Below, piece by piece: positions 30,857-31,518 of a stretch of DNA of 64,000 nucleotides; within the stretch, counting starts at the first letter, position 1; each line of letters begins with the position of its first letter. The translations under genes and the position numbers were made by a program. The stretch is from Escherichia coli. GTDB lineage: Bacteria > Pseudomonadota > Gammaproteobacteria > Enterobacterales > Enterobacteriaceae. Where the stretch lies: NCBI RefSeq assembly GCF_024700885.2, contig NZ_CP117016.1, one strand, 5' to 3'. Below the pieces are notes generated by a model that searched no databases, was not told the DNA's origin, and saw only the letters and a list, made by a program, of their open reading frames with translations.

Positions 30857-31518
30857 AACAGCCTCAAATACCGGTGAAAATGCTGACAACACTCACGATT
30901 TTGATGGTATTTCTCTGTGTCGGCAGTTATCTGTTAAGTCCAAAATGGCAGGCGGTACGTGCGGAGTATCAGCGTCAGCGCGATCCGCTACATCAGTTTG
31001 CCAGCCAGCAAACCCCGGAAGCGCAGCTTCAGGCATTGCAGGATAAAATCCGCGCTAATCCACAAAACAGCGAACAATGGGCGTTACTGGGCGAGTACTA
31101 TCTGTGGCAAAACGATTACAGCAATTCGCTGCTGGCGTACCGTCAGGCGTTGCAACTACGTGGTGAGAACGCTGAACTGTATGCGGCGCTGGCGACGGTG
31201 CTTTATTACCAGGCCAGCCAGCATATGACCGCCCAGACTCGCGCAATGATCGACAAAGCCCTCGCGCTGGACTCTAACGAAATCACCGCTCTGATGCTGC
31301 TGGCTTCCGATGCGTTTATGCAGGCGAATTACGCGCAAGCCATCGAACTATGGCAAAAAGTGATGGATCTCAACTCACCCCGGATCAACCGGACACAGCT
31401 GGTCGAGTCGATTAATATGGCGAAATTGTTGCAGCGGAGATCAGTTAATCATCTGGTGATGAAGATTATGTTATCGAGCTGCATAAAAAATAATCGAATG
31501 AACATGTGCCAAAAATAA
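30853..31518 (+). CDS. nrfG: TPR-repeat haem lyase subunit NrfG, here 221 aa with an apparent C-terminal extension
   Basis: ORF track 30787..31518; start at [10 protein letters not shown] (ATGA overlap with nrfF). Reference length as I recall is 198 aa; here the frame continues 23 codons further. Confidence 0.8.

Follow-up and report, generated by a model that had tools for sequence, protein, structure and literature searches.

Why does nrfG, the last gene of the nrf operon, run for 221 codons instead of 198 in the stretch of Escherichia coli DNA analysed here (64,000 nt of contig NZ_CP117016.1, hereafter the window)? The initial annotation, made from the sequence alone, noticed the longer frame and left three options side by side: a real allele, a sequencing error, or a mistaken expected length of NrfG. 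If the allele is genuine, a further question is what a longer C-terminus would mean for the protein and for the heme lyase it serves.

The nrfG reading frame and the missing base

The nrfG ORF extends from the ATG at 30853 to the TAA at 31516-31518 and encodes 221 amino acids (Table 1). A program-made ORF list starts it at an upstream GTG (30787); ATG 30853 is the RefSeq start and is the one matched by homologues. An annotation of the same extent, WP_000812983.1, is found in strains 1190 and MLI114. At 31441-31452 lie codons 197-200, tca-gtt-aat-cat, and the site at which a 198-aa NrfG is expected to stop (31447-31449) is occupied by AAT. The initial annotation had read the codon series and the continuation of the frame to the final TAA in exactly this way. 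The length that it expected was also right: the nrfG of K-12 comprises 597 nt and 198 aa and ends in ...QRRLD*, which disposes of a mistaken expectation as the source of the discrepancy. An identical 3' sequence and length in the reference gene, an outcome that would have spoken against an indel, was not found, since K-12 nrfG ends at 198 aa and differs from the window.

Alignment to reference nrfG, which the initial annotation had suggested, was made with K-12, UTAK-4, and strain 1190 together and revealed a single gap of one base, which lay in the window sequence. The nearest allele with a normal stop is gagatcaGATTAAtcatctg, and the closest intact-stop sequence, used to place the missing A, is gagatcaGATTAAtcatc. 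This closest normal-stop allele ends in tcaGATTAA, that is, S-D-stop. By these comparisons, the A missing from nrfG in the window is that of codon 198 and belongs between 31444 and 31445. Loss of this one A from GAT changes D198 to Val, puts the former TAA out of frame, and carries the frame on for 23 codons, to a stop that lies 69 nt downstream of the K-12-type stop. The alignment and the closest normal-stop allele therefore agree with the earlier proposal, in which a 1-bp indel exchanges the terminal residue and lengthens the protein by 23 aa, and the sequence that had been predicted to restore the stop, tcagattaa, is present in the closest relatives. K-12 itself carries ttg-gat-taa (L-D-stop), not tca-gat-taa; the S-D end belongs to other lineages. 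The alternative frame, 23 codons long, is open in K-12 and UTAK-4 as well, and is unused there.

Table 1. Coordinates in the window of nrfG, its altered 3' end, and the genes discussed with it.
Feature	Position	Strand	Basis
nrfA, intact, 478 aa, CWSCK at residue 122 and four CxxCH sites	25074..26510	+	
nrfF, intact, 127 aa, CPQC; 4-nt overlap (ATGA) of its stop with the nrfG start	30473..30856	+	
nrfG CDS, extended allele, 221 codons and stop	30853..31518	+	ORF reading, RefSeq extent, NF007692
Codon 198, now GTT (Val) after loss of the A from ancestral GAT (Asp)	31444..31446	+	Alignment with K-12, UTAK-4, and 1190, and closest non-carrier
Old TAA stop, now out of frame	31446..31448	+	Sequence reading against closest non-carrier
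Extension of 23 codons from the former nrfG-gltP spacer	31447..31515	+	Translation, composition, AlphaFold2, NrfG family model
New TAA stop	31516..31518	+	Sequence reading
gltP, next downstream gene, CDS untouched	31790..33103	+	

Spread of the allele among E. coli genomes

No assembly error is commoner than a single-base indel, and from the window alone an error and a real variant are indistinguishable. A 75-nt probe centred on the deletion site was searched against 5,426 complete E. coli genomes, and the identical allele was present at 100% in 24 of them, which came from human, dog, chicken, lake water, and seawater and from many sequencing groups. Four more genomes differ from this probe solely by the extra base. 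With a 24-kb probe (window 20000-44000), the same 24 genomes ranked top, each at about 100% identity in one unbroken alignment, and MLI114, a carrier, reached the maximal score. Among themselves, the carriers show 0 to about 3 differences over the 24 kb. Next came, at 99.6%, the four genomes with an intact stop (GATTAA), namely WP4-S18-ESBL-07, an O7:H15 strain named ST70, TUM14759, and M114, and all remaining genomes stood at 98.6% or below. At the level of this locus, every sampled member of the carrier lineage has the deletion.

Three of the 24 carriers are labelled O166:H15. According to a published genomic analysis of enteroaggregative E. coli, O166:H15 corresponds to ST349 of phylogroup D and is linked to enteroaggregative and bloodstream isolates (PMC7500659). 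Because the carriers are the top 24 genomes over 24 kb and the next four have an intact stop, the data point to one deletion event in one clonal E. coli lineage, with O166:H15 strains among its members. A 221-aa protein of identical sequence is also found on at least 999 public contigs under the name NrfG, and the RefSeq entry WP_000812983.1 is an ordinary NrfG CDS with no pseudogene label.

A sequencing or assembly error in the window would thus have to account for an identical deletion in 24 independently made complete genomes, which are exactly the window's closest over 24 kb, and for 999 or more contigs, drawn from several sources, that carry the exact protein; moreover, the missing A sits between G and T, outside any homopolymer. 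We regard such an error as practically negligible, and of the options raised at the outset the real allele is the one that held. Judged from these genome comparisons, the nrfG stop-loss allele is genuine and vertically inherited.

Recurrence was checked by placing the same deletion on UTAK-4/O157-type and K-12-type backgrounds, the two commonest in E. coli. For neither construct was a full-length exact match found in complete genomes; the band at 99% or above held 5 records and 1 record, respectively, which equals the number with under 80% query coverage, and these are therefore probably partial matches. The absence of a match on the two commonest backgrounds favours a single origin over a mutational hotspot, which we rejected as an explanation.

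The protein and the likely consequence of its tail

The deletion leaves residues 1-197 unaltered. The window protein scored 397.5 bits against the NCBIfam equivalog model for NrfG, NF007692 (cut-off 306), and the 198-aa sister allele scored 399.2. Residues 1-197 align to positions 9-205 of the 206 positions of NF007692; the model ends one position past the point of divergence, and the tail lies outside the match. Pfam TPR_CcmH_CycH (PF23914) was matched by residues 32-175 at 68.2 bits (cut-off 42), and PDB entry 2E2E, the TPR domain of O157:H7 NrfG, by residues 30-197 at E = 1e-103. AlphaFold2, run with a 32-sequence alignment, modelled an all-helical repeat body with pLDDT mostly between 70 and 90. 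A membrane anchor is predicted at the N-terminus, with hydrophobic residues 11-28 and a modelled helix at 8-27. The gene is the last of an intact nrfABCDEFG operon in which NrfA has its CxxCK site. By every criterion tested, all of them computational, the window protein is of the NrfG family, and its sole atypical feature is the longer C-terminus.

The orthologues of Escherichia, E. albertii, Citrobacter, Salmonella, and Intestinirhabdus all end in one alignment column, two residues after a conserved Arg/Gln, and the window protein ends 23 residues further. Natural variation of C-terminal length was considered as a precedent and rejected, since the differences among proteins of 198, 202, and 206 aa are all N-terminal. 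This C-terminal position, shared across genera, may reflect selection against longer ends. The last two residues themselves differ among genera (SD, LD, SE, QK, and RE), which indicates that the native end of NrfG is no conserved motif.

The tail has a GC content of 32%, compared with 52% in the nrfG body, and is translated AT-rich nrfG-gltP spacer. Its calculated pI is 9.85 and its net charge about +4, and with it the calculated pI of the protein rises from 7.8 to 9.3. It carries cysteines at 210 and 219, the sole other cysteine of NrfG being in the membrane anchor, and it ends in the polar residues CQK. AlphaFold2 modelled the tail as a low-confidence continuation of the last helix, undocked on the TPR domain; at a pLDDT of only 41-47, a structured or docked tail was rejected. 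When the spacer was shuffled 20,000 times with its composition preserved, an extension of at least 23 codons arose in 20% of the shuffles (median 9), so the length of the tail needs no special cause. The stretch of spacer that is now translated showed neither a terminator-like site nor an Rfam match at E <= 1. The start of gltP lies 271 nt past the new nrfG stop.

NrfE, NrfF, and NrfG are required for heme attachment at the CWSCK site of NrfA, and TPR domains, that of NrfG included, bind C-terminal peptides (PMC3884852, PMC12285233). The data show that the A was lost once from the last sense codon, GAT becoming GTT, in the ancestor of the clonal lineage, and that translation passes the adjacent TAA and runs 23 codons into the AT-rich spacer to the next TAA. 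We consider it probable that the allele is functionally tolerated. In this proposal, the product would be a normal NrfG with a membrane anchor and a periplasmic TPR domain, which would bring apo-NrfA, by its C-terminus, to the heme lyase NrfEFG. The floppy, basic 23-residue tail on the last helix would most likely be tolerated, and the carrier strain most likely still matures cytochrome c552. The intact folded domain, the variable end residues, the intact genes nrfA to nrfF in the window, and the undocked tail speak for tolerance; the new cysteines, the shared C-terminal column, and a tether whose 23 residues suffice to span the distance to the peptide-binding groove speak against it. The crystallised TPR construct of NrfG (2E2E) comprised residues 30-198 followed by LEHHHHHH, which shows that added C-terminal residues are compatible with folding. 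Continued selection on the operon after the mutation was discarded as a line of evidence: the carriers are so nearly identical (0 to about 3 bases per 24 kb) that the intact operon is uninformative in this respect.

A hypomorphic or null NrfG, in which the tail destabilises the protein, makes aberrant disulfides through C210 or C219, or blocks the TPR groove, is unlikely by our estimate but is the foremost competitor of a tolerated tail. Equally unlikely is the course that such a defect would take, in which the tail competes with the NrfA C-terminus for the groove, heme is poorly attached at the active site, and nitrite ammonification is impaired. The C-terminal position invariant across the compared genera fits such a defect, and so does the gain of two cysteines and about +4 charge by a periplasmic domain that is otherwise cysteine-free, in an oxidising periplasm where a thiol-handling machine is adjacent (CPQC of NrfF and CWSCK of apo-NrfA). 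NrfG-type TPR domains, moreover, bind C-terminal peptides (PMC3884852, PMC12285233), and a frameshifted nrfG, P0016, also occurs in deposited genomes. However, the TPR domain and the final helix are intact to residue 197, C-terminally tagged NrfG folded and crystallised, AlphaFold2 gives no confident placement of the tail on the domain, and the carrier lineage occurs widely, in several hosts. The polar CQK end of the tail is also unlike the non-polar C-termini that are recognised by Prc, the tail-specific protease of the periplasm. That the two-cysteine tail cripples or alters NrfG such that the whole lineage is naturally deficient in heme attachment at the NrfA active site is, in our judgement, rather unlikely; if it were true, a widespread lineage would be deficient in respiratory nitrite ammonification and in nitrite/NO detoxification in the gut. 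A tail that impairs NrfG would amount to a natural knock-down of the dedicated NrfA heme lyase in a clinically relevant lineage and would provide a ready-made test of the importance of a free NrfG C-terminus.

An adaptive gain, in which the tail is under selection for something new that it provides, for example an interaction or a redox-active pair of cysteines, is very improbable. Fixation of the allele in a successful lineage would suit it, but hitch-hiking accounts equally well for fixation in a clonal lineage. The tail has the composition of the spacer and a length often reached in the shuffles, it has no confident structure and no family match past residue 197, and the same frame is open yet unused in K-12 and UTAK-4.

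Related proteins and neighbouring loci

The NrfG of K-12 and O157:H7 (198 aa, PDB 2E2E) is 98-99% identical to the window protein over residues 1-197 and shares with it the NF007692 equivalog, the TPR_CcmH_CycH domain, and an nrfABCDEFG operon beside gltP; the window protein departs from it by ending in Val instead of Asp and then 23 extra residues. Closer still is WP_000812982.1, the 198-aa NrfG of the four closest non-carriers, whose genomes are 99.6% identical over the 24 kb. Its DNA is identical over the 75 nt save one base, the retained A, and the protein ends in ...RRSD-stop. CcmI, or the C-terminal TPR part of E. coli CcmH, the apocytochrome chaperone of System I, is a TPR module paralogous to NrfG and binds its apocytochrome substrate at the C-terminal helix (PMC3884852, PMC12285233). 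It serves CxxCH cytochromes generally, NrfG is specific to the CWSCK site of NrfA, and the two are not interchangeable.

P0016 is another public NrfG of 221 aa and uses the same alternative frame to the same TAA. Compared with the window protein, it leaves the normal frame about 22 codons sooner (after ...DLNSP), and its last helix is thereby destroyed. Present on one contig only, an NCBI contig of 5.16 Mb, it is an independent frameshift and probably either a pseudogene or an error. Two proteins from short metagenomic contigs, P0017 (325 aa) and P0101 (352 aa), combine a PF03918 NrfF/CcmH domain with the NrfG TPR domain. They are apparent NrfF-NrfG fusions, which is plausible because nrfF and nrfG overlap by 4 nt (ATGA, 30853-30856); they could also be an artefact of gene calling or of a frameshift.

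Public databases already contain many entries of the 221-aa allele under the standard name, and it is a strain-level polymorphism of a known gene, although we know of no paper describing it. It gives no hint of a new kind of system; the finding is an ordinary one, and the allele is probably of little consequence. The odd length of nrfG is a true lineage marker, which annotation pipelines and users should not "correct", and the deletion could serve as a diagnostic indel for the carrier clonal group.

Several further features of the region were recorded. For nrfE (window 28762-30480), RefSeq starts at a CTG (572 aa) and the program-made ORF list at a TTG at 28798 (560 aa); the K-12 protein is usually given as 552 aa, and the true start is uncertain. 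A weak sigma-70-like match at 31506-31535 (GTGCCA, an 18-nt spacer, and TATTAT; 9/12) overlaps the new nrfG stop and lies upstream of gltP; the count of sigma-70-like sites here is no higher than in shuffles. The gltP-yjcO spacer (33104-33181) measures about 78 nt, against about 530 nt in K-12 ER2796, and about 450 nt are thus either extra in K-12 or lost in the window lineage. In strain N4220121 (NZ_CP114227.1), the match to the window starts just past the nrfG stop region (window 31453-31700), with no annotated feature there, and two places in that sequence match window 31453-31700, which suggests that the 3' end of nrfG was rearranged or has received an insertion in this strain. Between yjcS and yjdP (43596-43913), the window lineage has only a 318-nt CDS of the RpiB/LacA/LacB family, whereas K-12 has alsK-alsE-alsC-alsA-alsB-alsR and a 450-nt rpiB at this position; the D-allose operon is thus absent from the window lineage, and rpiB looks truncated.
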